The notes below the pieces were generated by a model, which was given only the letters and a program-made list of their open reading frames with translations, ran no database searches and was not told the origin of the DNA. A stretch of 40,606 bases of DNA from a virus. How positions within the stretch are numbered: the first letter of the stretch is position 1; each line of letters opens with the position of its first letter. Below are positions 4,082 through 34,141 of this stretch, piece by piece. The stretch is from IMG/VR virus record IMGVR_UViG_3300046747_000228; one strand, 5' to 3'. Made by a program: the position numbers and the translations under genes.

Positions 4082-4308
4082 CACGCCCCCCTGGGGATGT
4101 ATGCCTGCGGTCCGGTCGGCAACCCGATCGCCGCAACGCCGACCGGAGACGCAGCCTCGGCCGCCTCGAGCAGCGCGCCGAAGGCGCGGCCGGCGTCGGC
4201 CTCGCGTTCCGGCGTAGCGTTCGCGCAGCCGAAGCACACGTCATCGCCGCCCGGGCCGTACGGGCGAAGCTCTTCGTCGTCGGTACCGCAGTAGTGGCAC
4301 CTGCCCAT
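4081..4308 (-). CDS. Small zinc-ribbon-like protein
   Basis: 75-aa product MGRCHYCGTDDEELRPYGPGGDDVCFGC has a CxxC...CxxC pair. ATG 4308 shares one base with the small terminase TGA (4308-4310). Confidence 0.6.
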   Translation of the reverse strand: MGRCHYCGTDDEELRPYGPGGDDVCFGCANATPEREADAGRAFGALLEAAEAASPVGVAAIGLPTGPQAYIPRGA

Positions 4309-4778
4309 CACAACCCCCGGTAATCGTCGAGCTGCACGACGCCGGCCGACGCCGCGTTCTCGTCGGGCTTCTTGCCCTTCGGCTCGACGTACTTGATGCG
4401 CAAGTCGCGACGAGCGTCGAAGTACGTGCCCATCAGCTTCTCGCGTTGCCGCAGCTCGGCGCCCGTGTAGCCGCGCCACGCTTCCATAGTTCGGGCGTGA
4501 ACCTCCGCCGTATCCATGGCAAATTCCCAGTCGGTCTCGGTCCACAACTTGGCGTGCGGCATGCGCGAGACCGCGCGCCACCACCCGACGGTTGCGGGTG
4601 GCCACGTCTCCGAGTTAGCGGCGCCGACGGCCATCACGGAAACGCCTCCGGTCGCGCGGTCGCGCAGCGCGGGCGCGCCCTCGAAGGGGACGTCGTCGAC
4701 CTCGAGAAAGTCGTACGTCGGATTCTTGTGCCGCACCTGCGAGCGATCAGTCTTCGGCTTAGTGCCCGGTACTCCCAT
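4308..4778 (-). CDS. Terminase small subunit (putative)
   Basis: 156-aa ORF. It is the first gene after the non-coding cos-like region and is preceded by GGGAGAGAGGA. WPPATVGWWRAVSRMPHAKLWTETDW and the C-terminal ELRQREKLMG...RRDLRIKY resemble actinophage small terminases (P27-like). Recognised by eye. Confidence 0.65.
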   Translation of the reverse strand: MGVPGTKPKTDRSQVRHKNPTYDFLEVDDVPFEGAPALRDRATGGVSVMAVGAANSETWPPATVGWWRAVSRMPHAKLWTETDWEFAMDTAEVHARTMEAWRGYTGAELRQREKLMGTYFDARRDLRIKYVEPKGKKPDENAASAGVVQLDDYRGL

Positions 4779-4974
4779 CAGCCCATCCTCTCTCCCGACG
4801 CGATCCTAGCAGGTACCTAGTAGCTTTCGGTAACGGTCACGCTCCGTAGTTTCGTGACGGAGAGTGATTCGGACATACCCCCCCGAAACGGTCTCGAAGT
4901 CGTAACAAGGCGGAGACGCTAACCCCTGCCGCGCAGGGCACCCCTGGGGGGAGGGGCATCCCCACCCTTCAATG
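4779..4974. other. Non-coding region between the HNH gene and the small terminase; candidate cos/packaging site plus the late promoter
   Basis: 196 bp with no convincing ORF. It holds an imperfect hairpin at 4837-4867 (tcacgctccgt/acggagagtga) and G/C runs (cccctggggggaggggcatcccc). The HNH-cos-TerS arrangement is classical for cos phages. The exact ends cannot be read from the sequence. Confidence 0.35.
4803..4824 (-). promoter_or_regulatory. Tandem CTAGG promoter/operator element upstream of the late operon
   Basis: The minus strand reads GCTACTAGGTACCTGCTAGGAT. TGcTAGGAT fits an extended -10 (TGnTAnnnT) about 25 nt upstream of the SD and ATG at 4778. Same motif family as 7136, 11671, 15988, 16027, 19494 and 33619. 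Confidence 0.5.
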
Positions 4975-5313
4975 TTACTTTGCGCGATAAATAACACTAA
5001 GTGATGGACGATCGGACACCCTACGCAACCTAGTGTTACGTGACGCGTGCGATGCTGCTGCTCCTTGCTGCCCCGTACGCCGAGCATGGCACTTCGTGCA
5101 CACACCTCGAAGGTTCGCGTCACTGTGATCGCTCGCTTCGCCGATGTGGTCAACCTCTGTGCTCTTCGCACCCCAGCAGTCAGTGCGCAGCTTGCACGTG
5201 GGATCACGCTTGAGGATGCGTGGACGTATGACCCTGTCCCACTCAGGAGGCAATGGCACAGTGCGCCACTCCCGGGTACCGCGGGGGCGGGACGTAGGCG
5301 TAGGGGTGGCCAT
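4975..5313 (-). CDS. HNH endonuclease
   Basis: The product contains VDHIGEASDHSDANLRGVCTKCHARR (an H-N-H core with a CxxC). ATG 5313 was chosen because the upstream part of the ORF lies in AT-richer sequence. It is adjacent to the terminase genes, as in cos phages that need an HNH for packaging. Confidence 0.8.
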   Translation of the reverse strand: MATPTPTSRPRGTREWRTVPLPPEWDRVIRPRILKRDPTCKLRTDCWGAKSTEVDHIGEASDHSDANLRGVCTKCHARRTGQQGAAASHASRNTRLRRVSDRPSLSVIYRAK

Positions 5314-5430
5314 ACGGGAGAGGCTATATCCACCACGCGCACCATGCCGTATAGATGATGAACGATATAAGCAACGCTGAGGGCAGCATGAATAGGGGCA
5401 GGTCAAGAGCGTTCGGCCTGCGGTACATGC

Positions 5431-6677: not shown

Positions 6678-6916
6678 TTACTGCGCCCCCATGCCGCGAG
6701 CAGGTAGAAGGTTCCGGCAACGGCCAAAGGCATCACGATGTCGATCGAGGGGAACGCCTCATCGATCCTGAGCAGCACGAACATGCTCAGCATCGACGCG
6801 ACTACGAGTACGCCCGGGGTCGGCCGCATGCTCGGCGGATCACGACGCACGTCGGGCAACGGCTGGCCGCGGCGAAGCGCCTCGACAGTCTCTTCGTACT
6901 CTTCGTCGGCGCCCAT
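6674..6916 (-). CDS. Small membrane protein
   Basis: 80-aa ORF with two hydrophobic stretches (VLVVASMLSMFVLL, VMPLAVAGTFYLLAAW). Its start overlaps the upstream stop by one base. Confidence 0.6.
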   Translation of the reverse strand: MGADEEYEETVEALRRGQPLPDVRRDPPSMRPTPGVLVVASMLSMFVLLRIDEAFPSIDIVMPLAVAGTFYLLAAWGRSK

Positions 6917-7098
6917 TAGGCGCTCGCCGGGTACGGATAGTTGAGCACTTCGTCGCCGAGGCAGCTAACGAGGTGCGCGGCGTCGTCACGCAGGTGCGCG
7001 CCGTCGGCCGCCGTCTCCTTGCTGTACGCCGCGGACGCGCCGCGCCGGCGGAGCGTCTCGAGCAGCTCGCGCGTACTGACGTCGTCGAGTTTCTTCAT
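6916..7098 (-). CDS. Hypothetical protein
   Basis: 60-aa ORF. ATG 7098 is preceded by GAAAGG. It is the first gene downstream of the promoter element at 7136-7159. Confidence 0.55.
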   Translation of the reverse strand: MKKLDDVSTRELLETLRRRGASAAYSKETAADGAHLRDDAAHLVSCLGDEVLNYPYPASA

Positions 7099-7135: not shown

Positions 7136-7159
7136 AACCTAGCAGGAAACATGCTAGGT
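7136..7159 (-). promoter_or_regulatory. CTAGG promoter/operator element in an inverted-repeat arrangement
   Basis: The plus strand reads ACCTAGCAGGAAACATGCTAGGT, two 10-bp arms matching 9/10 as an inverted repeat. The minus strand gives TGcTAGGTT about 40 nt upstream of ATG 7098. It sits just after the helicase stop at 7172. Confidence 0.5.
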
Positions 7160-7171
7160 CCACAAGCGGCA

Positions 7172-8782
7172 TCACGGCCACGTTTTCGGATCGAAGTGCT
7201 GAGCAGCCTTCGCGATCATCTGCTCGTCGAAAACCTCACCCTTCGTACGCCGGCCGCGGGCGCGCTCGCGGCGCCACGGAGCATCACGTTGCGCCTGCCA
7301 CATCGGCCGCTCGGCGACGAACTCGTCCCCCCGCGCCATGGCGTACCCGATCTCCATATCGGCTTGTATGAGCCCCTCGTGGCCGCGGTCGAAGGTCAGC
7401 CATCGCAGGTCATACCGATCAGCCGCGCCGCTCATGGCTGGCACGAGGAACACGAGACCCTGCGCGCCGGCCGGCACGAACCATCGGCCGCCCGGGGTGC
7501 GCAGCCACGAGGTGTGCGACTGGCCGAAGAGGTCGACGAGCTCGTGCGCGAGATCGCCGTCGGCGTACTCGATCGGCTCGGCATCGCCTACCGCGGTCTC
7601 CGAGCGGTCGTCGACCACCTCGGCGAGCACCTCATCGTCGTCGACCTCATACATGAGCAGATCGTCGGGCATGTCGTCCGGGCCGGGCGCTCCGCCGAGG
7701 CTGGCGAGGGTGGCGAGCTTATGCCGACCCGTGACCCCCGTGAAGTCGATGATCCAGCAGAACGCCTTACCCGGGTACAGCCGAAGCCCACGGCCAACCA
7801 TCTGCTGATATAGCGTGCTGCTCGAGGTCGGCCGCCCGAGCAGGATGCACCCGGTACTCGGCAGGTCGGTCCCCTCGGTGAACAGGCCGACGTTACAGAG
7901 CACGGTCACGCGGCCGGCCCGGTAGTCGTCGAGCGCCTGCGCGCGGACGGCGGCCGGCGTCGTGCCGTCGAGGTGCACCGCGGTAACGCCGGCGTCGTTG
8001 AACGCCTCGGCCTGCTCGATGCTCACGGCAACGGTGGGCAGGAAGGCGATCGTCGGGCACCCCTTCGCGTGCTCGACCCATGCCTCGACTATCCGCTGCG
8101 GCGCCATGGCGGCCGACATCGCGGCGCCGAGCGCCCCCGAGTTGTAGTCGCCCGCCACGCGAGCGACGCGCGTGAGGTCGAGGTCGGCGATTCGCACCCG
8201 GACGCCACGGGGCGGCACGAGGTACGGGGGGTCGCTGCGGATGAGGTCGATCAGCCCGACGCGCGGCTCGACGATCGCCTCGAAGACCTCGCCGAGCGCG
8301 CGGCCGTCGGAGCGGTCAAGGGTAGCGGTCACGCCGAGCACGAGCGGTCCGTCGACGTCGTACGCGCGCAGCTCGCGCAACACCCGCAGGTAGGTATCTG
8401 CGGTCGCGTGATGGGTCTCGTCGATGACGATCAACCCCCACGTCCGCGAGACGAGCAGCGGGAGTGTCGCCTTCGTGCTCGCCGTTTGGATCGACCCGAC
8501 GACGATCTCGGCCCGGTACTGCTTGACCGTTCCCTGCAGGCGACCGATACGGCGCCCGGGCGCGACCTGCTCGGCCTTATCGATCGCCTGGTCGATGAGC
8601 TCGGTACGGTGCGCGAGCCAGAGCACGGGGCGGCCGGCGGCGACCGACATCTCGGCGATGCTCATCGCGGTCGGAGTCTTCCCGCCCCCCGTGGCCATCA
8701 CCATCGCGATCCGGCGGTCGCCGCCCTGCCAGAGCTTGAGCGCTCCGTCGACTAATTCTTCCTGGTAAAGGCGAAGCTTCAC
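7172..8782 (-). CDS. SF2 DNA helicase (DEAD/DEAH, type III restriction res-subunit-like)
   Basis: 536-aa ORF with Walker A MATGGGKTPT, a DExH box VIDETHH, and later helicase motifs (TATLDR, LGRPTSSSTLYQQMVGRGLR). The GTG start overlaps the upstream stop (GTGA at 8779-8782). Confidence 0.85.
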   Translation of the reverse strand: MKLRLYQEELVDGALKLWQGGDRRIAMVMATGGGKTPTAMSIAEMSVAAGRPVLWLAHRTELIDQAIDKAEQVAPGRRIGRLQGTVKQYRAEIVVGSIQTASTKATLPLLVSRTWGLIVIDETHHATADTYLRVLRELRAYDVDGPLVLGVTATLDRSDGRALGEVFEAIVEPRVGLIDLIRSDPPYLVPPRGVRVRIADLDLTRVARVAGDYNSGALGAAMSAAMAPQRIVEAWVEHAKGCPTIAFLPTVAVSIEQAEAFNDAGVTAVHLDGTTPAAVRAQALDDYRAGRVTVLCNVGLFTEGTDLPSTGCILLGRPTSSSTLYQQMVGRGLRLYPGKAFCWIIDFTGVTGRHKLATLASLGGAPGPDDMPDDLLMYEVDDDEVLAEVVDDRSETAVGDAEPIEYADGDLAHELVDLFGQSHTSWLRTPGGRWFVPAGAQGLVFLVPAMSGAADRYDLRWLTFDRGHEGLIQADMEIGYAMARGDEFVAERPMWQAQRDAPWRRERARGRRTKGEVFDEQMIAKAAQHFDPKTWP

Positions 8783-10345: not shown

Positions 10346-10977
10346 GGGCGCCACGGCGCGGGGGCGCCGAGCTCGCGGCACATATCGTTGACCATGGTGC
10401 GGACGTCGTCCGCGTGAAAGTGCTCAGCATCGGCAGCGTTCTCGCGGGTGGCGAGAGCGACCCACGCGTCGATGCCCTCGAGCAGCGTCTTGCCGGCCGT
10501 GTAGATCGCCCGCTTAGTGGTGCGATCGAAGAGCTCGCGTGCGCCGATCGCGAGCGCGCCGAGCGATGCCTCATCACCGATGACAACCGCCTCGGGGTCA
10601 GGCGCCGACGGAACGCGCGCGGCAAGCTGCCTAGCGAGGTCGCTTACCTGCTCGGCGACGGCGAGCAGCTCGCTAGCGGTCTGCGAAGTGGCAGGCGCCG
10701 GCACCTCGGACGGTCCAATCTCACGCTCGACGAGAGCATGCGCGTTCGCCATGGCACGCAGGAAGGCGCTCGTCTCGTCGAGGTCGGCGACGTACGCCGC
10801 GGCAGAGACCCACCCCTTGATCGACTTCGAGCACCCAGGGATGTACGCCCACGGGCCGCGCACCTCGGCGCCCGCGGCGATCAGATACACGCGGAAAAGG
10901 TCACGCACGACGGCGCTCGCGGCGCCTGCGGCGACTGTGCGCGCTAAACGGCGCACGGCCTCGATGTGGTTGCTCAT
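10342..10977 (-). CDS. Hypothetical protein, N-terminal module paralogous to 10974..11633
   Basis: 211-aa product MSNHIEAVRRLART.... ATG 10977 overlaps the upstream stop (ATGA). RGPWAYIPGCSKSIKGWVSAAAYVA resembles PGGWIYLPGRVRPFAHGWQAAARCFA in the upstream neighbour. Confidence 0.65.
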   Translation of the reverse strand: MSNHIEAVRRLARTVAAGAASAVVRDLFRVYLIAAGAEVRGPWAYIPGCSKSIKGWVSAAAYVADLDETSAFLRAMANAHALVEREIGPSEVPAPATSQTASELLAVAEQVSDLARQLAARVPSAPDPEAVVIGDEASLGALAIGARELFDRTTKRAIYTAGKTLLEGIDAWVALATRENAADAEHFHADDVRTMVNDMCRELGAPAPWRP

Positions 10978-11633
10978 CGGTCCCCCTCGACGGCGAAGCC
11001 GAGGTCGTGAAGCGCCCGCTCGAGCAGCAGAGTCACGGCGTCCGCGCTCGTCGCGCCGCGGGGCATGCGGCGCATCACGGTGACGACCGCCATGCACAGC
11101 GCCGGCCGGCGTACGGTCGTCGCCGCCTCGACCGCGGCGAGCAGGCCCTTCGACGTGCCCGGGCCACCGCTATCGGCGAGCTCGACGAAGCGCGCGTACG
11201 CGTCTTCGCGGCGCCGGCCGCCCGGGGTGTTATCGACGCCACGCAGCATGTTCTCGCGCAGCGCTGCGTCGTGAACGTCCTCCGGGCGCTGCCGCGGTAC
11301 GGGTGCGATGTACGCAGCGTTCTGCTCGTACGCCGCGGCGTCGGCGAGCGCCTCGGCGTACGCGGCGGCGAGATCCTCGATCGACACGGAGCGCTTCGAC
11401 ATCTCGACGAGCAGGTCGCGGCCGGTATGCGTCACGGCCGTTACGGCGAAGCACCTCGCGGCAGCCTGCCAACCGTGAGCGAACGGCCGCACCCGCCCCG
11501 GAAGGTAGATCCATCCGCCCGGTCGGCGGAGGATGCCGACGTCGATAGCGAGGCTGCGGAAGATGGCTCCGGCGGCAGCATCGCCCTTCGCGGCGCGTCC
11601 GGCGAGCTGCTTGATTTCATCAACGGTAAGCAT
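10974..11633 (-). CDS. Hypothetical protein, first gene of an early leftward operon
   Basis: 219-aa product MLTVDEIKQLAGRAAKGD.... ATG 11633 is preceded by GAAAGG and by the promoter/leader module at 11634-11700. Confidence 0.65.
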   Translation of the reverse strand: MLTVDEIKQLAGRAAKGDAAAGAIFRSLAIDVGILRRPGGWIYLPGRVRPFAHGWQAAARCFAVTAVTHTGRDLLVEMSKRSVSIEDLAAAYAEALADAAAYEQNAAYIAPVPRQRPEDVHDAALRENMLRGVDNTPGGRRREDAYARFVELADSGGPGTSKGLLAAVEAATTVRRPALCMAVVTVMRRMPRGATSADAVTLLLERALHDLGFAVEGDR

Positions 11634-11700
11634 CGGCACTGCCTTTCGGGTTGGAGCGGGTGGAGATGTCAACCTAGCAGGAAACCTAGCAGGTTTGCAA
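11634..11700 (-). promoter_or_regulatory. Promoter/leader module, near-duplicate of 16018-16094 in the opposite orientation
   Basis: The minus strand reads TTGCAAACCTGCTAGGTTTCCTGCTAGGTTGACATCTCCACCCGCTCCAACCCGAAAGGCAGTGCCG followed by ATG. It holds two TGcTAGGTT elements 12 bp apart and then an SD-containing leader. Confidence 0.6.
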
Positions 11701-12937: not shown

Positions 12938-13160
12938 GGCAGTGTGATTAAAACTGCCGACTGCCGACACGCCAGTGTGCCGAAAAGTGCCGACAGTGAC
13001 AGAGAGTAAAATTTCGATTACTACCTTCCGGTAACGTGAAACGCTCTGACCAGCGGAAATATAAGTAAGTAAGTAAATAACGACTCCTACGGGGGCCGAT
13101 ATATCGGCAATATGTTCGTTAGACACTGTCGGCACTGCCGACTGCCGACACTGCCGACAT
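12938..13160. repeat. AT-rich region with clustered TGCCGAC iterons; candidate origin of replication
   Basis: The exact 18-mer ACTGCCGACTGCCGACAC occurs at 12953-12970 and 13134-13151, with further cores at 12938-12944 (inverted), 12977-12983, 12988-12997 and 13152-13159. An 11-bp inverted pair lies at 12988-12998 and 13124-13134, and a 14-bp palindrome GCCGATATATCGGC at 13095-13108. A (TAAG)n tract sits near 13062-13077. This is the lowest-GC stretch of the window and it abuts or overlaps the 3' end of the primase gene. Confidence 0.5.
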
Positions 13161-15563
13161 CGCAGACGCGGGAATCGACGACCCCGGTTCGTAGAACGTC
13201 CCCGCGGCGTCCGTCACGCACCACCCGCGAGCCACCATGGCGGCGACGATGTCATCGCGGATGTCCCGCTGAGGGGCGGACAACATGCGCGAAAAATCCC
13301 GAGCTGTCATACGCCCGTGCCCATGCAACTTCACGGCCACCCGCTCGGCGAACCGAACCGTCCGGGCATCCTCGGCGAGCCCGCGCACGTCGAGGCGGCC
13401 GAGCTCGGCCGCGGCCTCACGTCGCCTGTGGCGGTCGATGTCGACCGCCTCGGCTTTTCCCCTGCGCGCCTCTCCGAGCGCCTGCACGTGCCGCCTGACG
13501 GCGTCTGACGTCTCCCACAGGGTGCCGGCTAGGGCGCAATCCTCTTCGTTGACTTCCTTCCTGCCGTCGAGCCGCGCGAGCAGTCCCGAAAGCTTGACCA
13601 GCATGAGGGGTCGCTGTGAATGGAACGGGTCGACGATGAGGCGCCCCTGCCCGCGGGAGACCCGCTCCCGCCTGATGGCCGCGAGGATCGCGGGCGGGAA
13701 CGTGAGCGTGACGCCGGCGTCCGCCATGGCGTGTTGCAACTCGGTCGGCACAACGTCAATGGGCACACCCGGCGGGAACGGGTTGTCGGGAGGGTCGTCA
13801 GGGATCGACGGGTCTACCGCCCAGACCCACATAAACCGTTGCGGCGTGCCGGCGTCGACGTCGGCGAGCAGCGGAAGCGCCGTGTGGTCTTGATACCCAA
13901 TCGTCAGGCCGAGAGCATAGGAACCTTTCTCGACGACACGAGTCGTCTCTGACCTGCCGTTTTTCTGGCCGATCGTCTCGCCGTTCCACGCCGAGCGAAG
14001 CGTCTCGCCGACCGTGCTACCCGTTCTCTCGATCAGCTTGTTGAGCCCCTGCCCTTCATCGGTATGAAGTAGGACATTGTGGCGTACCTGCTTACGAACC
14101 CGGGCCTTTTTGGCGCTTCCGTCTTTCGCCATATCGCCCGTTTCTTCCATTACCTCACCCATGTACGCCTCGGCGATTCCCTCGCCGCTCCCGAGCGGGA
14201 ACTCGGCCGGCGGCACGCCACCGATACGCAGAGACGCCCCGACGCCGAGGCCCTGCGTCTTGCCCACCCCCGTCGGCGCGATGATGGCGGCGAAAAGATT
14301 GAGGCTGGCGGGTGTGCCGACGCCGGTATCGGCTCGCACGGTATGCGAAGTCATGGCGGCGAGCCGTGTAAGAACCGAGTAGAGAGCAACGTCCCCGCTG
14401 GTCGCCCGCTCGTGCGCTACCCGCCGGATACGCGTGAGAGCGGGCCTAGCTGCCCAAAATTCGTCAGGTAGCGTCAAGCTGCCCGGGGCGACGATCGCCG
14501 TCGAGGGGGGCGCCCCGACGTTGCCGGCCGCCGCCCCGGGCGCTGTAAAACCCAGCGGCGCCACGATGCCCGTAGCCGGGGGGATGTCGTGCTCGCATAT
14601 CGTGCGCGGCACCGAGTTGGCTTTTGCCGCGAGCTTGACGGCGCCCGTGATCAGCCGTTGCCACTCTCCCGACGCCCACCTCGCTTCGCCGATCGCCTTA
14701 CGGAACGCGGCGCCGATCATGGCGACCGCATCGGGTGCGCCCTTGTGTCCCTCGCCGCCCGCCCGGACGACCGCGGCGAGGGCGTCACGCGCCGTCTCGT
14801 GCCGCGCGCCGTTGACGTCCGTGAGGTCGTGCACAGCCTTTATGCACACGCTGTGGATAAGCGGGCAGGTGCCGGCGTCGGCGCGCAGCGCATCCCACCA
14901 TGCCGCGAGGTCGCTAGTAGCGAGGTGGCTCTTCTCGGCGGTCGCGTACGGCAACGCGAGCCCGCGCACCCATGCTTCCGGGAGCTCGGCGAGGTATTCC
15001 GGCCGCGGGACTACCCCGGGCGGACCGCTCTGCGACCAACTGCCTTCGGCGCGCCACTCGTACGGGGCGCCCGCGGCGTCCGGGTTGGTTGATGGCCACA
15101 CGACGGCGTAGCGGTGTCCCGCTTGAATGATCTCGATGAACTTCGCCGCCTCGCCGGGCCAGTTGATCGGCCGCCCGTCGAGCTGCTCGGGCACCCGGAA
15201 CCATCGGATACCCGACGGCGCCGGCCGCGCGCTCGACACCCACGTCGGGGGTAATGGGCCGAACTTCGCCTCGAGCTCGGCGAGGTGCGCACCCCCGGTC
15301 TTCGAGCCGTAGTCGTCGACGTCGAGGCCGAGCGTGCCGGCCGCCGCGCGTATGCCGATGTTGTACGTCGCCTCGGCGCCGAGCTCCCATACGCCGATGT
15401 CGGCGTCAGACGGGTACGGCGAGCCGTGCCCCGTGAAGCCCCCCGGGGGCGGCGACTTTTGCCCGGGTGCTCGACCGATCGGCAACGCGCCGAGCCAGCC
15501 AGCAGCCCGGTAGATTCGCGCCGCTCGTCCGAAAGGCCCGAGCCCTGTATCGTCTGTCGTCAA
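13119..15563 (-). CDS. Bifunctional DNA primase/polymerase (prim-pol) fused to a P-loop NTPase (helicase-like) domain
   Basis: The N-terminus YRAAGWLGALPIG...GLDVDDYG...GHRYAVVWPSTNP is typical of the bifunctional prim-pol N-terminal domain. The central region has Walker A APTGVGKT and Walker B-like VLLHTDEG. TTG 15563 is preceded by GGGAGAG; the longest ORF would start at TTG 15593. Confidence 0.8.
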   Translation of the reverse strand: MTTDDTGLGPFGRAARIYRAAGWLGALPIGRAPGQKSPPPGGFTGHGSPYPSDADIGVWELGAEATYNIGIRAAAGTLGLDVDDYGSKTGGAHLAELEAKFGPLPPTWVSSARPAPSGIRWFRVPEQLDGRPINWPGEAAKFIEIIQAGHRYAVVWPSTNPDAAGAPYEWRAEGSWSQSGPPGVVPRPEYLAELPEAWVRGLALPYATAEKSHLATSDLAAWWDALRADAGTCPLIHSVCIKAVHDLTDVNGARHETARDALAAVVRAGGEGHKGAPDAVAMIGAAFRKAIGEARWASGEWQRLITGAVKLAAKANSVPRTICEHDIPPATGIVAPLGFTAPGAAAGNVGAPPSTAIVAPGSLTLPDEFWAARPALTRIRRVAHERATSGDVALYSVLTRLAAMTSHTVRADTGVGTPASLNLFAAIIAPTGVGKTQGLGVGASLRIGGVPPAEFPLGSGEGIAEAYMGEVMEETGDMAKDGSAKKARVRKQVRHNVLLHTDEGQGLNKLIERTGSTVGETLRSAWNGETIGQKNGRSETTRVVEKGSYALGLTIGYQDHTALPLLADVDAGTPQRFMWVWAVDPSIPDDPPDNPFPPGVPIDVVPTELQHAMADAGVTLTFPPAILAAIRRERVSRGQGRLIVDPFHSQRPLMLVKLSGLLARLDGRKEVNEEDCALAGTLWETSDAVRRHVQALGEARRGKAEAVDIDRHRRREAAAELGRLDVRGLAEDARTVRFAERVAVKLHGHGRMTARDFSRMLSAPQRDIRDDIVAAMVARGWCVTDAAGTFYEPGSSIPASAMSAVSAVGSADSV

Positions 15564-15612
15564 GTTCGTCTCTCCCAAAAGTGATGAACGCAAGTCTCTT
15601 CACGGAGACGTG

Positions 15613-15681: not shown

Positions 15682-15981
15682 CTACGCCTCGGGTGCGCCG
15701 TCGCCCCTCGCCCGCCGCGCGAGCTCGGCACGTCCCTTGCGCACGGCGCGCTGGTATCGCTGCGGATCGCGACGGAACAGGCGCGAGATCGCGTCGTCGA
15801 GCAGGTCGCGGACGACCTCACCCTCGCGCGGTCGCGTGTAGTCGCCATCCTCGGCGTTCTCGATGGCCACGCCGAGCAGCAGCTCGCGGGTCTGCGTATC
15901 GACGAGAGCGTGCACTTGCTGCGAAAACCGTCGGGCGGCCGAAGTCTGCGGCGGCGCGACATCAGTCACGAGATCAGTCAT
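15682..15981 (-). CDS. Putative ribbon-helix-helix-like DNA-binding protein (candidate early regulator)
   Basis: 99-aa ORF, the first gene leftward of the divergent control region. RRFSQQVHALVDTQTRELLLGVAIENAE...GEVVRDLLDDAISRL fits a strand-helix-helix pattern. ATG 15981 has no SD and lies 6 nt after TAGCTT, which suggests a leaderless transcript. The fold assignment is inference. Confidence 0.4.
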   Translation of the reverse strand: MTDLVTDVAPPQTSAARRFSQQVHALVDTQTRELLLGVAIENAEDGDYTRPREGEVVRDLLDDAISRLFRRDPQRYQRAVRKGRAELARRARGDGAPEA

Positions 15982-15987
15982 GCGACG

Positions 15988-16010
15988 AAGCTAGCAGAAA
16001 ACCTAGCAGG
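15988..16010 (-). promoter_or_regulatory. Leftward promoter/operator (tandem element) of the divergent control region
   Basis: The minus strand reads CCTGCTAGGTTTTCTGCTAGCTT, followed by cgtcgc and the ATG. The second copy supplies TGcTAGCTT (TGnTAnnnT) at the right distance for a leaderless start. Confidence 0.5.
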
Positions 16011-16017
16011 GCGTCGA

Positions 16018-16094
16018 CATTGCGAACCTGCTAGGAATCCTGCTAGGTTGACATCTCCGCACCACAACGAACACCCGAAAGGCAGGGCCGGGGC
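16018..16094 (+). promoter_or_regulatory. Rightward promoter/leader module, near-duplicate of 11634-11700
   Basis: The plus strand reads CATTGCGAACCTGCTAGGAATCCTGCTAGGTTGACATCTCCGCACCACAACGAACACCCGAAAGGCAGGGCCGGGGC followed by ATG at 16095. There are two CCTGCTAGG copies (16027-16035 and 16039-16047), and the second gives TGcTAGGTT. Confidence 0.6.
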
Positions 16095-16319
16095 ATGACA
16101 CAGATCATCGAACAGGTCACGTACGTTCCGGTCCGGGGGTCGACGACCGTGGTCGTTCGCCCGCCTCGGGCATGCGGTCTCGCCGGATGCGTCGGCGAGC
16201 TCGAGGTTGCCGGCAAGCATGGCGACAGGACCATCGTTCACCTCGATGACGAGCAGCGACGCGTGCTGATCGAGGGTCTCGGCGGTCTGCCGCAGACCTA
16301 TGACCCGCGGGGGAGGTGA
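16095..16319 (+). CDS. Hypothetical protein, first rightward early gene
   Basis: 74-aa product MTQIIEQVTYVPVRGS..., with GAAAGG upstream. Confidence 0.65.
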   Translation: MTQIIEQVTYVPVRGSTTVVVRPPRACGLAGCVGELEVAGKHGDRTIVHLDDEQRRVLIEGLGGLPQTYDPRGR

Positions 16320-16441: not shown

Positions 16442-17253
16442 TGGTCGCCGCTTTACAGATCACGTGCCCGTTCCTGCCCTGCCGCGGGCAATGGTGGGTC
16501 GGCGTCGGGCTCAGTGACACGGTACGTGTGCCGCAGCACAGTCCGATCGGTATGCCCGCGAGCTACACGGGGTGGCTGCCATGGTGCCCGGGCGCGAACA
16601 TGTTCGTCCGGAAGGACACGTCGCGCCCGTTCATCGAGCAGGACGTCGCGAAGCTGCAGCGCGCCCTGGCCGCTTATCAGGCGCGCGTCAAGGCGATCGC
16701 CGCAGGGACGGCCGACGGCGCACCGTACAAGCCTCTCGCCGCGGGCGAGTCGGTCGGCCGTCCGGTCGATCCGACCAACGAATACTTTCCGGGGCGGCCG
16801 GCCGATGCGCCGGAACCGAATCCTGGCGAGCGCCCCGAAATGCTCCCCTCGTGGGAGCTCGGAGGCGGACACCTAGGGGGAAGCGCAGTGGACAATTCGC
16901 ACAGCACTACGCAGGGGCTCGTCGGCCTCGCCATCAATCAGATGGGTCTGACACAGGATCTGCTCGCGCGGGTCACGTCGGCGCTCGATGAGGCCGAAGC
17001 GGTCGCGGTCGCGTCCGAGTCGCAGATCCGGACCGTTCAGTCGCTCGTCATGGCGGCCGTCGGCACGGGCGAGGGCGCGCCTCCGTCGGGTGAGCAGATG
17101 GCGGAGCATACGGCGCTCGCGGTCGACACGATCTCGGGCGACGCGAGCGTCGGCCTCGCGGTGCACCTCGCGAAGGTCCGCGCGGAGACGGCGAACAACC
17201 AAATTCTCGCCGCGGTTGCCAATGCTCAGGAATTTCTCCGGACGCTCAGCTAG
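16441..17253 (+). CDS. Hypothetical protein
   Basis: 270-aa product MVAALQITCPFLPCRGQWW... with a helical C-terminal half. The start was chosen on codon bias and stop/start overlap. Confidence 0.65.
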   Translation: MVAALQITCPFLPCRGQWWVGVGLSDTVRVPQHSPIGMPASYTGWLPWCPGANMFVRKDTSRPFIEQDVAKLQRALAAYQARVKAIAAGTADGAPYKPLAAGESVGRPVDPTNEYFPGRPADAPEPNPGERPEMLPSWELGGGHLGGSAVDNSHSTTQGLVGLAINQMGLTQDLLARVTSALDEAEAVAVASESQIRTVQSLVMAAVGTGEGAPPSGEQMAEHTALAVDTISGDASVGLAVHLAKVRAETANNQILAAVANAQEFLRTLS

Positions 17254-17513
17254 TGACGTACGAGGAAGTGCACGCGGGCGATCACGTGCTCGGTCATGAT
17301 GGCGATATCTGGGGAGTCGCCGAGATCGAGCACGTGCCGCGGATCGCTGTGACGCTCGTCAAGCCCGGGTGTCGCGTAACGGGTTACCCGCCTGCGGGCA
17401 CACCGGTCACTATCGTGGCTCGGTCCGACGTCACGGCCGAGCACGCGGCGGCCGGCGTACTGATCGCCGCGGGCTTCAACATCGACATCATTTCGGAGCA
17501 ATGGACACCGTAG
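17253..17513 (+). CDS. Hypothetical protein
   Basis: 86-aa ORF. GTG 17253 shares a base with the upstream TAG. Confidence 0.6.
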   Translation: MTYEEVHAGDHVLGHDGDIWGVAEIEHVPRIAVTLVKPGCRVTGYPPAGTPVTIVARSDVTAEHAAAGVLIAAGFNIDIISEQWTP

Positions 17514-18060: not shown

Positions 18061-19488
18061 ATGACGCAAATCGTACATAGCGCGCAAGCGCCGACACAGC
18101 GGCAGATGCCTACGGGCGGTCGTTGGGGGTGGTATACGGATCATGAGGGGCGCGAGTGGCGCCGCGTGTCGAAGCTCGTCAAATACGTCGAGACCGACAC
18201 GTACAACCTTGACCAGTGGATGAAGCGGCAGGTCGCCGAAGGGCTCGCGATCCGCGACGACCTCGTGCTCGCGGTCAAGGCCATGGGTCGCCCCGACGCG
18301 ACGCTCGGATGGTCGGACGCCGACAAGAAGAAGCTGAACGAGATCGCGCGGGACGCGATGAACGCTGCCAAGCAGGCCGACGGCGCCCGCAGCGGGACGG
18401 CGATGCACGATCTTACCGAGCGCCTCGACCGCGGCGAGAGCGTCGACAATGTGACGCGCGGGTTGCCGGCCGCCGCGGGTATGTCGCTGCGCGCCTATGC
18501 GTTCCTGCGCGAGGCGAACGGGTGGCGCAACGTCGAGATCGAGCGCACGGTCGTCGTCGACGAGCTCGAGGTTGCCGGCACCTTCGACCGCATCGACATC
18601 GTGCCCGGGCTCGTTTCCCTGCTCGGCCCGGGCTCGTGCCAGTACGGCGACGAGTGCCCCGACGTCGGCTTGCCCGGCCACGGGGATGCGGCCGTCGTCG
18701 ACGTCAAGACCGAAAAAGCGCCGTGGCTCAATGGCCTGCACATCGGTCCGCAGCTCGCGATCTACTCACGGGCTCAGCGGATGTGGGAACCGGACGGCAC
18801 GGTCGTTCCGCTGCTCTATGCCGACGGCCGGCCGAAGATGCGCGACGACGGCGCCGCGCCGCTCACGACGGCCGGCGGGCGCTACGTGCGGGTGCCGTGC
18901 GTTCGGCAGGATGTCGGCATCGTTGTGCACGTGCTCGACGGCGATGCCGTGCCGTACTTCATCAATCTGGCGGAGGGGTGGGGCGCGGCCGTCGCCGCCT
19001 ACGAGCAGATGCGGCGCGAGCAGCGGTCGAAGACTCGGCTCGGCGCGCCGGGTGCATGGTTCGTGCCCGTGCCGAACGTCAAGCGGCCGGCCGTCACGCA
19101 GATTTTCACCGAGCACGCGGTCGCGGCCGACTACGCAAATCCCGCGCGGCCGGCCGCCGGGGGCGCCGAGCAGGTCGCCGTTCGCGGCGTCGACGGATTG
19201 GTGCGATGGGAGGGCGAGGCGCCGGCCGAGAACGTCGCGACCCGCGGACCGCTCGATGAGGTCGACAAAAGCGCGATCGAGGCGATCTGGCTGGCGAACG
19301 TCGTCAACGGGGGCGACTGCTCGCTCTCGAAGATCTTCGAGATCTACACGGGGATGGGTCGCCTCTGGTCCGGTCGAGTCGCCGAGGCGGCGACCGCGCG
19401 GCGTCGGCAACTTGAATGCCCACAGCGTGCGCTTCACGTCGGCGCGGGCAAGTGCGCGTGCGGGTGGGTTACGGGCGTCGCACCGTAG
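18061..19488 (+). CDS. PD-(D/E)XK nuclease (RecB/Cas4-like exonuclease) with a long C-terminal extension
   Basis: 475-aa ORF with a strong SD (GGAAAGGGGAGAG). Motifs GTFDRIDIV, AAVVDVKTEK and QLAIYS follow the D...D/ExK...QxxxY pattern of RecB-family nucleases. The C-terminus has Cys clusters (CQYGDEC, ECPQ...CAC). Confidence 0.6.
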   Translation: MTQIVHSAQAPTQRQMPTGGRWGWYTDHEGREWRRVSKLVKYVETDTYNLDQWMKRQVAEGLAIRDDLVLAVKAMGRPDATLGWSDADKKKLNEIARDAMNAAKQADGARSGTAMHDLTERLDRGESVDNVTRGLPAAAGMSLRAYAFLREANGWRNVEIERTVVVDELEVAGTFDRIDIVPGLVSLLGPGSCQYGDECPDVGLPGHGDAAVVDVKTEKAPWLNGLHIGPQLAIYSRAQRMWEPDGTVVPLLYADGRPKMRDDGAAPLTTAGGRYVRVPCVRQDVGIVVHVLDGDAVPYFINLAEGWGAAVAAYEQMRREQRSKTRLGAPGAWFVPVPNVKRPAVTQIFTEHAVAADYANPARPAAGGAEQVAVRGVDGLVRWEGEAPAENVATRGPLDEVDKSAIEAIWLANVVNGGDCSLSKIFEIYTGMGRLWSGRVAEAATARRRQLECPQRALHVGAGKCACGWVTGVAP

Positions 19489-19493
19489 CCGGA

Positions 19494-19515
19494 CCTGCTA
19501 GGTACCTGCTAGATT
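19494..19515 (+). promoter_or_regulatory. Tandem CTAGG promoter/operator element
   Basis: The plus strand reads CCTGCTAGGTACCTGCTAGATT. The second copy gives TGcTAGATT. It lies about 105 nt upstream of ATG 19623. Confidence 0.45.
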
Positions 19516-19622: not shown

Positions 19623-20426
19623 ATGTCTCAGCCCAATCCGTTCGCGGCCGGCACGCCGGTCGCCCCGCAGCAGCAGGCGCCCGCGGCCAACCCCTTCGGC
19701 GCGCCCGCCCCTGCGCAGCAGCAGGCGCCCGCGGCCAACCCCTTCGGCGCCCCTGCTGCCCCCCAGCAGCAGGCGCCGGCCGCGCCGCAGGCGTACGCGC
19801 CGCAGCAGCAGTACGCGCCGCAGGCGCCCGCTCAGCAGGCGTACGCGCCCGCCGCGGCGCAGCAGCAGACCGCAGCGCCCGCGCTCGGTCCGGTCGGGGG
19901 CGCTGCGGCGCCCGTGGTCGGCGAGGGCCGCGGCCCTAAGTTGCCCGACATGTACGGCCGCCTCCTGCTCGTCATGCCGCAGCGCCTCGAGAACGTGCCG
20001 CGGCGCCCCGAGCACATCACGGCCGAGCAGCGCGCGGCCGGCAACGTCAACCAGGACAAGATGACCGCCACCATCGTCATCCTCGACGCCGGCCGCGTCG
20101 GCGACTACTCGCCGATCTGGTTTGGCGGAAACCCGCACGCGCTCGGCGGTACCCCGCACACGGAGTCCGCTGCGCTTCCCTACGTCCGTAAAGGCATGTG
20201 GCTCAATCAGTCGCGCCTCATCTCGCAGGCGCGCGACTATCTGCCCGGGGGCGCGCACGCCGGCCCGAACGGGGCGCCCGGGATGGTTTGCGGCCGACTC
20301 GTCAAGACCGGTCCGGGCGCCAACGACCCGTGGTACCTGACGACGCCGACCGACGAAGAGGTCGCGCTCGCCAACGCCTACGTCGGGCTCGTCGCGAACG
20401 GGCAGTACCCGAACCCTCTCGCGTGA
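19623..20426 (+). CDS. Hypothetical protein with an N-terminal Q/A/P-rich NPF(G/A) repeat region
   Basis: 267-aa product MSQPNPFAAGTPVAPQQQAPAANPFGAPAPAQQQAPAANPFGAP..., with GAGG upstream. The globular C-terminal half was not recognised. It sits between the nuclease and RusA. Confidence 0.7.
   Translation: MSQPNPFAAGTPVAPQQQAPAANPFGAPAPAQQQAPAANPFGAPAAPQQQAPAAPQAYAPQQQYAPQAPAQQAYAPAAAQQQTAAPALGPVGGAAAPVVGEGRGPKLPDMYGRLLLVMPQRLENVPRRPEHITAEQRAAGNVNQDKMTATIVILDAGRVGDYSPIWFGGNPHALGGTPHTESAALPYVRKGMWLNQSRLISQARDYLPGGAHAGPNGAPGMVCGRLVKTGPGANDPWYLTTPTDEEVALANAYVGLVANGQYPNPLA
19668..19790 (+). repeat. In-frame tandem repeat with a 48-bp period
   Basis: The 35-mer CAGCAGCAGGCGCCCGCGGCCAACCCCTTCGGCGC is exact at 19668-19702 and 19716-19750. 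A degenerate third unit starts near 19765. Confidence 0.85.
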
Positions 20427-21570: not shown

Positions 21571-21583
21571 AATGCCTAGCAGA
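21571..21583 (-). promoter_or_regulatory. Degenerate single copy of the CTAGG element
   Basis: The minus strand reads TCTGCTAGGCATT, about 20 nt upstream of ATG 21551. The -10 candidate TAGGCA lacks the final T. Confidence 0.3.
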
Positions 21584-21631: not shown

Positions 21632-22636
21632 ATGATCAGCAAGCTGAGAGCCGCACTCGTCGTGCTGCTGCTCGCCGCGGGGATCACGGGAGGTACGGCG
21701 ATCATGCCGATCGCCTCCGCCGAGGCGGTCGGACACGCGAGTGGGCACATCGTCCCCCCGGGTGCCGGCGGTAGCGCGCACGCGGCTAAGGCGAAGGCCC
21801 TGACCGCGTTCAATGGCGCGGGTTACTACTACGCCGGCGGATCGCAGACCTACGGCGGAACCGATTTCAGCCGCGGGCTCGGCGCCAACATCTTCATTTC
21901 GAAGCCATTCGTGCCGAACACGCCCAACGGGGGCGGCACCTATGACCACTCCCTGCTGGACTTGATCGTCAACGAAACGACCTCGGGCGTAGCGGGTAAC
22001 GCCATGGAGGCGTTCGTTGCCGTCGAGCCGAACGTGTGGGGGAACTTCAACCCGCACCTCGGCGTCTGCGCGTGGCATAACAGCGTTGACAATGGTTGCT
22101 ATACCGGCGGCACCAACTGGATCGACAACCCTGCCAACCCGCTCAATCTCGGCGCCGACCTGTCCGCCGATATCGGCACGGGTAAGTCGTTGATCATCGT
22201 GTACGCCTCGACCGGGTGCGGCACTGCGTCTACCGGATGGTGGGTGCAATACGCGGGAACGTACGTCGGTTGCTACACGCCGGCCGCGTTCGGCGGATCC
22301 ACGTGGTCGACGGCGAAGTTCGTTCAGGCCGACGGCGAGTACTACTACAACGGGGTGAATCACCCTGGCACGAGCAACGACAAGCCGTGCGGCGACCTCG
22401 GGAACGGCTTGTACCCGGGCACGGGCGCGGGATACATCGCGAGCCTGTCGACCGTCAACCCGTCCCCGGCCGGACTGGTCTCGTCGTTCACCTTGCACCC
22501 GGACACCGATTCGGGGGCCTATAGCGCGAACTGGACGGTACCGGGCAGCACCACGCGGAGCATCTACATCGGGGGCGCCGGCTACAAGTTCGTGAGCGGT
22601 GTGGCAACCCTGCCCGGTACCGCCGGGTCCTGCTAG
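21632..22636 (+). CDS. Secreted neprosin-like (DUF239/glutamic peptidase-like) protein
   Basis: 334-aa ORF with SD GAAGGGG. It has a Sec-type signal peptide, MISKLRAALVVLLLAAGITGGTAIMPIASA|EA. The mature part follows the neprosin-domain order: HSLLDLIV, NAMEAFVAVEPNVWGNFNPHL, GCYTGG, GWWVQYAGTYVGCYTPAAF, ADGEYYY. Recognised by eye, no search run. Confidence 0.5.
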   Translation: MISKLRAALVVLLLAAGITGGTAIMPIASAEAVGHASGHIVPPGAGGSAHAAKAKALTAFNGAGYYYAGGSQTYGGTDFSRGLGANIFISKPFVPNTPNGGGTYDHSLLDLIVNETTSGVAGNAMEAFVAVEPNVWGNFNPHLGVCAWHNSVDNGCYTGGTNWIDNPANPLNLGADLSADIGTGKSLIIVYASTGCGTASTGWWVQYAGTYVGCYTPAAFGGSTWSTAKFVQADGEYYYNGVNHPGTSNDKPCGDLGNGLYPGTGAGYIASLSTVNPSPAGLVSSFTLHPDTDSGAYSANWTVPGSTTRSIYIGGAGYKFVSGVATLPGTAGSC

Positions 22637-22986
22637 CAGGTACTCGCAGGCGGAGCAGGATGCGCCGCGCGGACGTCGTCAGTGTGCCTACGCGCCTCGA
22701 CGTCCGCGCGGCGTAGCTCGAGCCCGCTCGGTCCCCCCGGCTGCGGACCGTTGACGAGCGCGGCGTCGGCGCGCCGCTCGGCGTCCGTGGCATCGGAAAT
22801 GATCACGGTGCGCGCGGCGTCTGCCCGCTGCTGATCGGCGAGGCATCGGATGAAGCTCTGCTGTTGCATGCCGAGCCACCCGACGGCGATGAACGCGACG
22901 AGCGCGAGCAGGGTCGTTATCGCGCGCATGGTCGGCGTGCCGGCCCATGCCAGCCAGCGGGGTGGATCCTCCGGGAGGCCGGTCAT
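22633..22986 (-). CDS. Membrane-anchored protein, last gene of the lysis cassette
   Basis: 117-aa ORF with one N-terminal TM helix (AITTLLALVAFIAVGWLG) and a charged helical ectodomain. It has an ATGA overlap at 22983-22986. Confidence 0.6.
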   Translation of the reverse strand: MTGLPEDPPRWLAWAGTPTMRAITTLLALVAFIAVGWLGMQQQSFIRCLADQQRADAARTVIISDATDAERRADAALVNGPQPGGPSGLELRRADVEARRHTDDVRAAHPAPPASTC

Positions 22987-32368: not shown

Positions 32369-32818
32369 CTACTCCGTCGACTTCCGCGGCCGGCCGGGGG
32401 CGCGGCGGGGCGCGGCCGGGGGCGCCACGGGGTCGACGCCGGCGTCGAGGATGCCGAAGAGCACCTCGACGAGCCAGCCTTCGCGCTCGGTGTCAACGTC
32501 GACGGGCATGAGCCCGCGGGTCTGCAGCCCGTCAACGATGGTCGCGAGCTGTAGGCGGTAGCCCTCGGCGACCGACTCGGCCTCGGCAACCTTGCCGGGC
32601 CACGTCTCACCGTCGCCGCGCTCGGCCGCGCTCGGGCCGTCGTGCTCGTCGTCACCCTCGTACGGGAGATCGATCTTGTACGGCATGAACGAGTCGGGGT
32701 ACGCCTTCGCGACCGGGTGGCGAGCGTCGGCGAACGTGCGCCCGCGCACGACGCGATACTTCGAGCCGTCCGGCGCCGTGATGATGCCGTTTCGCTTCGA
32801 GACGACGATCTCGGTCAT
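32369..32818 (-). CDS. Hypothetical protein with a C-terminal AT-hook-like tail
   Basis: 149-aa ORF with an ATGA overlap with the upstream GT-like gene. It ends in PRRAPGRPRKSTE. No family recognised. Confidence 0.65.
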   Translation of the reverse strand: MTEIVVSKRNGIITAPDGSKYRVVRGRTFADARHPVAKAYPDSFMPYKIDLPYEGDDEHDGPSAAERGDGETWPGKVAEAESVAEGYRLQLATIVDGLQTRGLMPVDVDTEREGWLVEVLFGILDAGVDPVAPPAAPRRAPGRPRKSTE

Positions 32819-33618: not shown

Positions 33619-33629
33619 AACCTAGCAGG
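33619..33629 (-). promoter_or_regulatory. Single CTAGG promoter element that could restart leftward transcription after the opposite-strand gene
   Basis: The minus strand reads CCTGCTAGGTT (TGcTAGGTT), about 45 nt upstream of ATG 33573. It lies in an AT-richer intergenic region (33574-33679). Confidence 0.45.
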
Positions 33630-33679: not shown

Positions 33680-34141
33680 ATGAACGGCATCGAGCGAGCG
33701 AACTGGACGATCGCCTACCGGAAGCCGCGGGCGAACCGCTTCCTGCGCGTGGCGACCTGGTCCGGCACCTGGTCGCAAGCTATGGGCATGCGGCGGTTGT
33801 TCGCCACGGCGAACCCCGAGCTCGAGGTCTACTGCACCTCGAGCCGCGCGGCCGAGATCGAGGGTTTCGTCATCGAGGAGGACTGCCGGAACATCCTGGT
33901 CGACTCGGGTCGTCGGGTGCGCATCTTCGAGACCGACGTCGAGTTGCCGGCCGAAATGGTCGCTCGCATCCCCGCGGCCGAGGTCGCCCGCGAGCGGTGG
34001 ATCGACGCCGAGCCGATCGCCGACGCCGCCGGACAGGGCTTCGAGGTCGCCCTGCGCGAAGGTGTCGTGCTCGCCGTCCGGGCGGCCGACTGGCACGAGG
34101 CGATCGTCGCGAACGCGGCGCGGGCGCTGCTTACCGCCTAG
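33680..34141 (+). CDS. Hypothetical protein encoded opposite to the structural operon
   Basis: 153-aa product MNGIERANWTIAYRKPRANRFLRVATWSG..., with GAGGGAG upstream. A possible -10, TAGGCT, lies at 33637-33642. Its TAG overlaps the TAG of the convergent GT2 gene through a shared CTAG. Confidence 0.65.
   Translation: MNGIERANWTIAYRKPRANRFLRVATWSGTWSQAMGMRRLFATANPELEVYCTSSRAAEIEGFVIEEDCRNILVDSGRRVRIFETDVELPAEMVARIPAAEVARERWIDAEPIADAAGQGFEVALREGVVLAVRAADWHEAIVANAARALLTA

Follow-up and report, generated by a model that had tools for sequence, protein, structure and literature searches.

The virus sequence IMGVR_UViG_3300046747_000228, a stretch of 40,606 bp that we call the window, carries a 9-bp box, CCTGCTAGG, that stands twice, one DNA turn apart, in almost every promoter that we could recognise. 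From this pattern in the sequence, the boxes are probably landing sites of a phage regulator. The reading that we favour, with modest confidence, is that each site is a promoter doubling as a twin operator for a dimeric phage protein, which would most likely be a repressor.

Nine exact copies of CCTGCTAGG occur in the window against 0.09 expected, a number reached by none of 100 dinucleotide-preserving shuffles, and the 11-mer CCTGCTAGGWT finds 10 sites with at most one mismatch where 0.44 are expected. The box is near-palindromic (CCTR-N-TAGG). An earlier note on this DNA had described the element as almost confined to intergenic DNA and as pointing toward the downstream gene, and both descriptions hold. 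On a gene map derived from codon usage, which assigns 94% of the window to coding, all but one of the nine exact copies fall entirely within the 6% that is non-coding; the ninth overlaps just the last 8 nucleotides (nt), stop codon included, of the open reading frame (ORF) 4806..5345. All nine face a start codon on their own strand, 21–121 nt away. The partner copies that the note had named were all recovered. Its placement of the element at every operon start was overstated, since there are long gaps without any copy (for example 12867–13118, 17711–17943 and 6471–6673), and it had overlooked a perfect palindrome, CCTGCTAGCAGG, between converging genes at 22629–22640.

Scanning IMG/VR once for exact matches to the tandem box pattern returned 38 stretches, about 25 of which are relatives of the window (G+C content 66–73%, proteins 50–80% identical to the window's). 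Distant relatives were collected through homologs of a 99-aa protein encoded beside the central divergent promoters and not through the motif; a primase-based search for related loci in IMG/VR confirmed no relative. From the window together with its relatives we obtained 51 distinct twin-box units, a set partly ascertained through the motif itself. The spacing of 11–12 bp proposed by the earlier note holds throughout, the two copies starting 11 bp apart in 35 units and 12 bp apart in 16.

What are these sites? Their sequence anatomy makes it well supported that they are housekeeping-sigma promoters. The units share one layout: a -35-like hexamer (TTGCAA, TTGACA, TTGCGA or TTGCTA), 0–2 nt, box 1 (CCTGCTAGG), a gap of 2 nt (mostly TA) or 3 nt (mostly TTT), and box 2. 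Box 2 consists of CCTGCTAG followed by G, C or A; the next two bases, N and T, complete a TAG-N-N-T -10 with TG before it. In this constant layout the spacer between -35 and -10 measures 17 or 18 nt and is filled by box 1. Every twin site of the window has TAGGTT, TAGGAT, TAGATT or TAGCTT (TAnnnT) as its -10, and the final T (-7) is present in 94% of the 51 units. A hexamer with at least four of six matches to TTGACA lies 0–2 nt upstream of box 1 in 31 units (16–19-nt spacers), against a background of 2.4% per hexamer; at offsets 3–7 from box 1, such matches are at background. Most sites thus appear to be full -35/-10 promoters, and the suggestion in the earlier note that they are independent of a -35 is mostly wrong, although 20 units, among them those at 19494 and 33621 in the window, lack one. 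In 14 units, including that at ATG 15981, an ATG or GTG follows the -10 after 6–7 nt, which implies leaderless mRNA, a common form in actinobacteria. The promoter reading itself is borne out by the TAGNNT -10, the TG before it, the register of the -35, the spacing of start codons and the tRNA genes that lie downstream in eight relatives. A scan of the window with the E. coli consensus, which is blind to TAGNNT promoters, found 0 promoters, and terminators predicted in the window were at or below chance.

Is RNA polymerase the only reader of the boxes? The spacer is not read base by base by the polymerase, as far as is known, and box 1, in the spacer at -28..-20, is as conserved as box 2, which suggests a second reader. 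At positions that the search did not fix, box 1 keeps C1 in 84%, C2 in 94%, G4 in 84%, C5 in 94% and G9 in 94% of the 51 units; G9 is found in only 61% of box 2 copies. The pairing also appears in a set gathered independently of the motif (the window and four loci fetched by protein), where, of 33 proximal boxes, 25 are accompanied 11–12 bp upstream by a second box with at most two mismatches, against 0.7% by chance. The proposal of the earlier note that the elements double as operators for a phage regulator is supported by this comparative inference, from box 1 conservation, inversion, symmetry and change between lineages, and to that extent only.

The sites could instead form a pure promoter family with host polymerase as sole reader. 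Box 2 would then be a long extended -10, box 1 a second -10 or a relic of cassette duplication, and the uniformity would reflect copying and gene conversion of one strong cassette. This would fit the -10, TG and -35 being all in register, the reading TGCTAGGTT of box 1 in 12-bp-spaced units, which is a usable extended -10, and the copied cassettes described below. It would also fit the result of our Pfam and PHROG scans, which covered about 50 of the 61 predicted proteins of the window and revealed no recognisable DNA-binding domain. However, in two thirds of the units (those spaced by 11 bp) box 1 reads TAGGTA, which is not usable as a -10 because the essential last T, at -7, is missing. An inverted box 1, seen in the window at 7150–7158, in L029, in L036 and in eight of nine cases in L107, is useless as a -10 for that direction; in L107, sites with an inverted box 1 form the 20-bp palindrome CCTAGCAGGTACCTGCTAGG. 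We know of no role in polymerase recognition for the CC at positions 1–2 or for G9, yet these are 84–100% conserved. Some copies outside promoters, namely the palindrome at 22629–22640 and gene-end copies in L007, L018 and L037, retain CCTGCTAG without TAnnnT. In view of these features we consider host polymerase an unlikely sole reader.

Between lineages the box also changes (CCTACTAGG, CCTGATAGG), every site of a genome switching together, with the twin-box layout and the -35 unchanged. L112, L113 and L108 have the perfect palindrome CCTACTAGG, and the proximal box of L112 and L113 sometimes lacks the TG (CCTAGTAGA) and is still kept as a box. In L110 and L111 the spacer holds CCTAWTAGG and the -10 nnTGATAGG; in L110 the TG of the extended -10 is confined to the proximal box, and the spacer box is a pure palindrome. 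Both cases are hard to square with recognition by polymerase alone. L112, a locus of 12.4 kb, has in addition to its CCTACTAGG boxes a second repeat, approximately GCCGGATAGGTGGAC, in at least eight copies.

A host factor, either a global regulator or a nucleoid protein that the phages exploit, might read the boxes. The box is invariant among phages whose proteins are only 30–60% identical, and the composite of hexamer and boxes recurs in unrelated high-GC viral contigs, both of which would suit a host reader. Against it, the box changes with phage lineage, and a tandem-pattern scan of 185,579 representative cellular genomes gave just 67 matches at 64 loci, scattered across all phyla and attributable to chance or tandem repeats. 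Three of the 67 have a -35-like hexamer, and promoter anatomy is confined to L099, itself a relative of the window phage; the true host may lie outside that set of genomes. The twin box therefore does not look like a host motif, and a host reader seems very unlikely. As for the composites themselves, L023, L025, L028 and L031 (for example L031 3370–3410) are high-GC viral contigs without detectable protein similarity to the window that carry TTGACG-CCTGCTAGG-cac-CCTGC-TAGTAT. L016 (60% GC; 11670–12010) has TTGACAg-CCTGCTAGG-gc-CCTGCTAGGGA and three more boxes within 330 nt. They may reflect wider use of the box, or they may be chance matches.

How might the twin operator work? The sequences show how enriched the boxes are, how they are laid out, and that they are conserved, sometimes inverted and changed by lineage; promoter activity, protein binding, direction of regulation and identity of the reader we infer from this, and we propose the following. 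Host RNA polymerase with the housekeeping sigma factor would recognise the -35-like hexamer, the 17–18-nt spacer and the extended -10 (TGC TAGGTT) of the proximal box and start transcription 6–8 nt past the -10, in many units at the start codon itself. A phage-encoded, two-fold symmetric dimer would read each 9-bp box of the general form CCTR-N-TAGG, with box 1 in the spacer at -28..-20 and box 2 at -17..-9, over the extended -10 and the first four -10 bases. Because the boxes lie 11–12 bp apart, both dimers would share the same face of the helix and probably bind cooperatively. Dimers over -28..-9 should exclude polymerase or block opening of the -10, so that repression by occlusion is the likeliest outcome. 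Boxes are found on early, tRNA, lysis and late units alike, so the result would be genome-wide feedback or shut-off. Degenerate boxes would grade the repression, as with box 2 of the leftward divergent promoter P_L (TCTGCTAGC), the variant GCTACTAGG at 4816–4824 and the two boxes that stand singly, at 33621 and 21575.

The chief alternative to this scheme is its mirror image, positive control: the reader would be an activator or specificity factor, bound to the opposite face of the spacer or contacting sigma, that brings host polymerase to phage promoters, as with T4 MotA or MerR. All evidence for a second reader fits it equally, a genome-wide activator would be sensible for an apparently lytic phage, and the 20 units without a -35 might need help. 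The proximal box, however, spans -17..-9 and so includes the first four -10 bases, which sigma must melt. Moreover, MerR-type activators bind a palindromic site in an over-long spacer of 19–20 nt and correct it, whereas here the spacers are already optimal at 17–18 nt and our scans detected no MerR domain. Early promoters must also fire before any phage protein is made, and they have the best -35/-10 match. We consider positive control rather improbable.

Genome-wide operators have precedents, and the nearest in actinophages is that of the temperate cluster A mycobacteriophages (L5, Bxb1, TipsytheTRex; PMC9283540; PMC6550527), in which one repressor acts on more than 20 oriented sites (PMC9283540). 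These sites are asymmetric 13-mers bound by a two-domain monomer; for the most part they are found outside promoters, where they stop elongation (PMC9283540). Both systems have a short, genome-wide, intergenic motif oriented with transcription, with one set of copies over the early promoter and with variation between lineages. In contrast, the box described here has 9 bp, is near-palindromic, is paired at one turn and lies within the promoter core; the only ones without a -10 are the palindrome at 22629–22640 and, in relatives, a few copies at gene ends. No homolog of a gp71-type repressor and no integrase was detected in our scans, and the cellular genomes gave no prophage relative. The analogy with stoperators drawn by the earlier note therefore survives as a loose likeness, that of an oriented intergenic repeat, and fails in that our sites are short, near-palindromic and at promoters and that neither an integrase nor an L5-type repressor was found. 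If the boxes acted like stoperators, mainly stopping read-through between operons, one would expect their orientation to correlate with the direction of transcription, as it does, and some to lie at gene ends, as at 4805–4813, at 22629–22640 and in L007, L018 and L037. But orientation is accounted for because the -10 is embedded in box 2; box 1 is free in orientation, the sites coincide with full promoters, and the L5-type repressor and the integrase are, again, missing among the scanned proteins. A main role in blocking elongation thus appears highly implausible.

Closest in logic are F55 of the virus SSV1 and Arc of phage P22. F55 is a small dimeric ribbon-helix-helix (RHH) repressor; the tandem direct repeats that it binds overlap core promoter elements, both at several viral genes and at the F55 gene itself (PMC5569661). 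Its own promoter has a weaker set of sites, as P_L has here; unlike the present system, SSV1 is an archaeal lysogenic virus with TATA/BRE promoters (BRE, B recognition element), a ATAGATAG-type repeat and a demonstrated RHH protein, whereas here the host is a bacterium and boxes are found in promoters of every class. Like operators of the RHH type, which are short symmetric or repeated boxes about one helical turn apart in direct or inverted order, the twin box has a spacing of 11 bp (35 units) or 12 bp (16 units), palindromic arms and inverted partners in some units. P22 Arc and Mnt, CopG and omega bind short near-palindromic or repeated boxes, one dimer to each, and adjacent dimers about one turn apart are cooperative; in Pant the Arc operator occupies the stretch that separates -35 from -10, and omega takes direct or inverted heptads. 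They differ in controlling one or a few promoters and not a whole genome, and we found no sequence, profile or fold similarity between proteins of the window and RHH proteins.

Two other phage systems are more distant. T7-like phages have near-identical 23-bp promoters read by a single-subunit phage RNA polymerase. They resemble the window in having one near-identical sequence at nearly all transcription units and differ in that the sites here have ordinary -35/-10 geometry and that no RNA polymerase or sigma gene was detected among the scanned proteins, for which reasons we rejected promoters for a phage polymerase or sigma factor. The temperate Streptomyces phage phiC31 has conserved 17-bp inverted repeats bound by the c repressor; there, too, many intergenic copies of one operator lie by conserved early promoters, but they are not phased twin boxes in spacer and -10, and the repressor is known. 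Replication iterons and packaging sites were ruled out, the sites being dispersed at gene starts; restriction-site avoidance was considered and rejected.

Which protein might read the box? The product of 15682..15981, 99 aa long, is the best-placed candidate, an assignment that we make tentatively and with rather low confidence. It has 21 close and 54 representative homologs (50% clustering, the latter of about 90–125 aa), all metagenomic. No related locus spanning the divergent region lacks the gene, which always lies at the divergent twin-box region and is always the first gene, predicted to be leaderless, with a weakened proximal box in its own promoter. A leaderless first position and a weakened own box would fit an autoregulated regulator. 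Apart from the primase, only the 99-aa protein and an acidic 86-aa protein are conserved throughout the seven distant loci. At position 24, homologs have H where the box is CCTGCTAGG and T or N where it is a variant, a pattern broken by L109. A confident AlphaFold2 model from a deeper alignment (predicted local distance difference test score, pLDDT, 90.1) has an extended segment (residues 1–28) and helices at 29–46, 53–71 and 73–91. This strand and these helices are compatible with an RHH protein carrying an extra helix, which is not evidence for one, a monomer model being unable to show an intersubunit sheet. Other candidates were set aside. The 86-aa protein (17253..17513, + strand) has 38–59% identity in all seven distant loci and is better conserved than the 99-aa protein; it was rejected as acidic (isoelectric point, pI, 4.9) and without a match in the PDB, and it has no family match either. 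The 74-aa product of the first gene of the rightward divergent promoter P_R is not universal across loci and has no match, and a protein of L103 with an XRE-type helix-turn-helix has no homolog in the window.

Several observations weigh against this candidate or against the twin operator as a whole. The 99-aa protein has no Pfam or PHROG family and no PDB sequence match, and its pI is 6.6. The best Foldseek hits of its model have E = 6 (PDB) and 0.33 (BFVD), and hhalign against six RHH sequences gave less than 2% probability. The label RHH-like that the earlier note gave it thus finds no support in Pfam, PHROG, PDB, Foldseek or hhalign; 1 of the 21 close homologs matches Antitox_RHH, at a weak E = 0.09. 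The putative reading strand varies (RRYNESMSMFVD in L109, YLDQQVHVLVD in L107) where the box stays CCTGCTAGG, and the covariation of the N-terminal strand with box variants, suggestive as it is, is confounded by overall phylogeny. To this are added the lack of a recognisable DNA-binding domain among the scanned proteins and the gathering of part of the 51 units through the motif. The promoter at 11671–11700 and P_R also share about 55 nt of leader, and part of the box conservation is common descent, since promoter cassettes were copied as units. Finally, the role of a global repressor is puzzling because neither an integrase, an immunity repressor nor prophage relatives were detected. The full picture, in which an apparently lytic, uncultured actinophage clade uses one host-type promoter class for early, tRNA, lysis and late units and ties each to a reader of the 99-aa family, with a fold unmatched in PDB and BFVD and a specificity that drifts by lineage (CCTGCTAGG, CCTACTAGG, CCTGATAGG), is a possibility that we put forward with low confidence.

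Table 1. Boxes, predicted promoters and associated genes of the window (positions in bp)
Feature	Position	Strand	Elements and remarks
Exact copies of CCTGCTAGG	4805, 7138, 11673, 11685, 16002, 33621	-	
Exact copies of CCTGCTAGG	16027, 16039, 19494	+	
P_R, rightward divergent promoter	16020..16049	+	-35 TTGCGA 16020-16025; box 1 CCTGCTAGG 16027-16035; box 2 CCTGCTAGG 16039-16047; -10 TAGGTT 16044-16049; 18-nt spacer
P_L, leftward divergent promoter	15988..16017	-	-35-like TCGACG 16012-16017; box 1 CCTGCTAGG 16002-16010; weakened box 2 TCTGCTAGC 15990-15998; -10 TAGCTT 15988-15993; upstream of 99-aa gene
Gene of 99-aa protein	15682..15981	-	first gene of P_L
Promoter	11671..11700	-	-35 TTGCAA 11695-11700; box 1 11685-11693; box 2 11673-11681; -10 TAGGTT 11671-11676
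Promoter	7136..7165	-	-35-like TTGTGG 7160-7165; inverted box 1 7150-7158; box 2 CCTGCTAGG 7138-7146; -10 TAGGTT 7136-7141
Promoter	4803..4824	-	box 1 variant GCTACTAGG 4816-4824; box 2 CCTGCTAGG 4805-4813; -10 TAGGAT 4803-4808
Promoter without -35	19494..19515	+	box 1 19494-19502; box 2 CCTGCTAGA 19505-19513; -10 TAGATT 19510-19515
Single-box promoter without -35	33619..33629	-	CCTGCTAGG 33621-33629; -10 TAGGTT 33619-33624; upstream of 32815..33573
Degenerate single box TCTGCTAGG	21575..21583	-	upstream of r1t-type holin gene (ATG near 21551); -10 would be weak TAGGCA
Palindrome CCTGCTAGCAGG	22629..22640	.	two half-overlapping boxes; stop codons of 21632..22636 (+) and 22633..22986 (-)
Primase/polymerase	13119..15578		recognisable gene
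Helicase	7172..8782		recognisable gene
Exonuclease	18061..19488		recognisable gene

The sites of the window are listed in Table 1. P_R is predicted to drive 16095..16319 and the early + strand genes; its leader is 45 nt long and contains the Shine-Dalgarno sequence GAAAGG, and its layout is repeated in the relatives L002, L006, L009, L010, L022 and L029. Opposite to it, ATG 15981 follows the -10 of P_L by only 6 nt, so that the mRNA of the 99-aa protein should be leaderless. The weakened box 2 of P_L, (T/G)CTGCTAGC(T/C)T with an ATG 6–8 nt on, is kept in L006, L009, L010, L022, L029, L032, L103 and L107. The promoter at 11671–11700, predicted to drive 10974..11639, has a leader of about 55 nt beyond the boxes (11628–11671) in common with P_R (16049–16097), TTGACATCTCC..ACCCGAAAGGCAG..ATG, which is also present in L002 and L011; the two leaders are near-identical, and duplication has taken in whole promoter-leader cassettes.

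Further left, the promoter at 7136–7165 is predicted to drive 6916..7098, and its inverted box 1 reads CATGCTAGG on the + strand and CCTAGCATG on the transcribed strand. The promoter at 4803–4824 precedes the small-terminase-like gene 4308..4778, which marks the start of the late leftward unit; the TAG within its box 2 ends ORF 4806..5345 as the stop codon, and its GCTACTAGG variant recurs in L001, L026 and L033 at the orthologous position.

The promoter at 19494–19515 is predicted to drive 19623..20426. A conserved hairpin (19523–19570) begins at its predicted +1 (19523), with a minimum free energy of -45.3 kcal/mol for 19516–19625 (z = -2.9). In relatives, a hairpin with other stem sequences lies at the same place, with compensatory changes in 9 of 13 pairs. 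In eight relatives the pair of boxes orthologous to 19494–19515 is followed by the hairpin and then by a tRNA gene (Lys, Pro, Arg, Cys, Leu and others); none follows it in the window, L002 or L036. Rfam and tRNA scans of the window found nothing, the hairpin included; its role may be to stabilise the 5' end of the transcript or to signal processing.

The single box at 33621–33629 lies between divergent genes. Going by spacing alone, there may be a + strand promoter (-10 TAGGCT, 33638–33643) for 33680..34141, in which case this box would possibly stand inverted at its -28..-20; a single box may thus serve two divergent promoters at once. The gene 33680..34141, which diverges from this box, is a lone + strand gene of 153 aa with matches to PHROG families of unknown function. 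It interrupts the - strand structural block and is kept in L004, L014 and L022. In the same virion-structure block, 34800..35426 (-) gives a match to the FkbM methyltransferase domain that passes the curated cutoff (E = 4e-7) and 34138..34803 (-) a weak match to glycosyltransferase family 2 (E = 0.002, below the cutoff). These two genes (34138–35426) may serve virion or host-surface modification.

The palindrome at 22629–22640 is not a -10, because it has no TAnnnT. In relatives, the homolog of 22633..22986 likewise ends in ..TGC TAG within a CCTGCTAGG box (L007 6622, L018 1202, L037 6252, L021 239), and the next gene after it runs in the same direction, unlike the convergent arrangement in the window. 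The neprosin-like gene on the other side, 21632..22636, is 95% identical to its counterpart in L033. The junction looks like an exchange of modules by recombination at a shared box.

The phage that carries these sites is probably a lytic, uncultured actinobacteriophage. Bases 1–127 and 40480–40606 of the window are identical, and because both ends carry this same exact 127-bp repeat the window represents a complete genome, closed into a circle of about 40,479 bp, with a G+C content of 67%. The large terminase shares about 60% identity with counterparts in Tsukamurella, Gordonia and Mycobacterium phages, and the primase/polymerase reaches at most 31%, to Gordonia phages. Searches of 50,697 GenBank phages gave no match to 13000–20000 at the nucleotide level in near and distant modes, to the 44-nt composite consensus or, by tblastn, to the 99-aa protein; a literature search on the box strings and on conserved actinophage promoter repeats found no paper naming these boxes in a phage context. 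Besides the genes in Table 1, we recognised small and large terminase, tail and head genes, a weak RusA-like protein, an r1t-type holin and the neprosin-like peptidase. An integrase, an immunity repressor, a partition gene, a sigma factor and an RNA polymerase were not detected in our scans, and no prophage relative was found in the cellular genomes. Transcription diverges from 15981/16095; the leftward unit covers the replication genes, the terminase and then head and tail across the circular junction, and it converges with the rightward unit at 22633–22636.

What does the twin box mean for these phages? Genome-wide operators themselves are known from temperate phages; what would set this case apart is a proposed phage-wide operator set fused to promoters, in an uncultured clade, with a predicted reader that is possibly of novel fold. 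If the reading is right, sequence would give a near-complete promoter map of an uncultured phage clade and a compact model of genome-wide control with one 9-bp box, two per promoter and one reader. The twin box is already of use as a search key, which brought up the roughly 25 related genomes from IMG/VR in a single scan, and as a mark of transcription-unit boundaries and leaderless genes that improves annotation. Once the reader is known, the sites could serve actinobacterial genetics as strong promoters of high GC content that can be switched. The finding raises the question of why a phage apparently without an integrase should have the same operator on every promoter, when genome-wide operators are known from temperate phages. 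In the box variants of the different lineages there is a natural experiment on the joint change of a regulator and its full set of sites and, were the 99-aa family, with its at least 54 representatives, the reader, it would constitute a new family of global phage transcription regulators.

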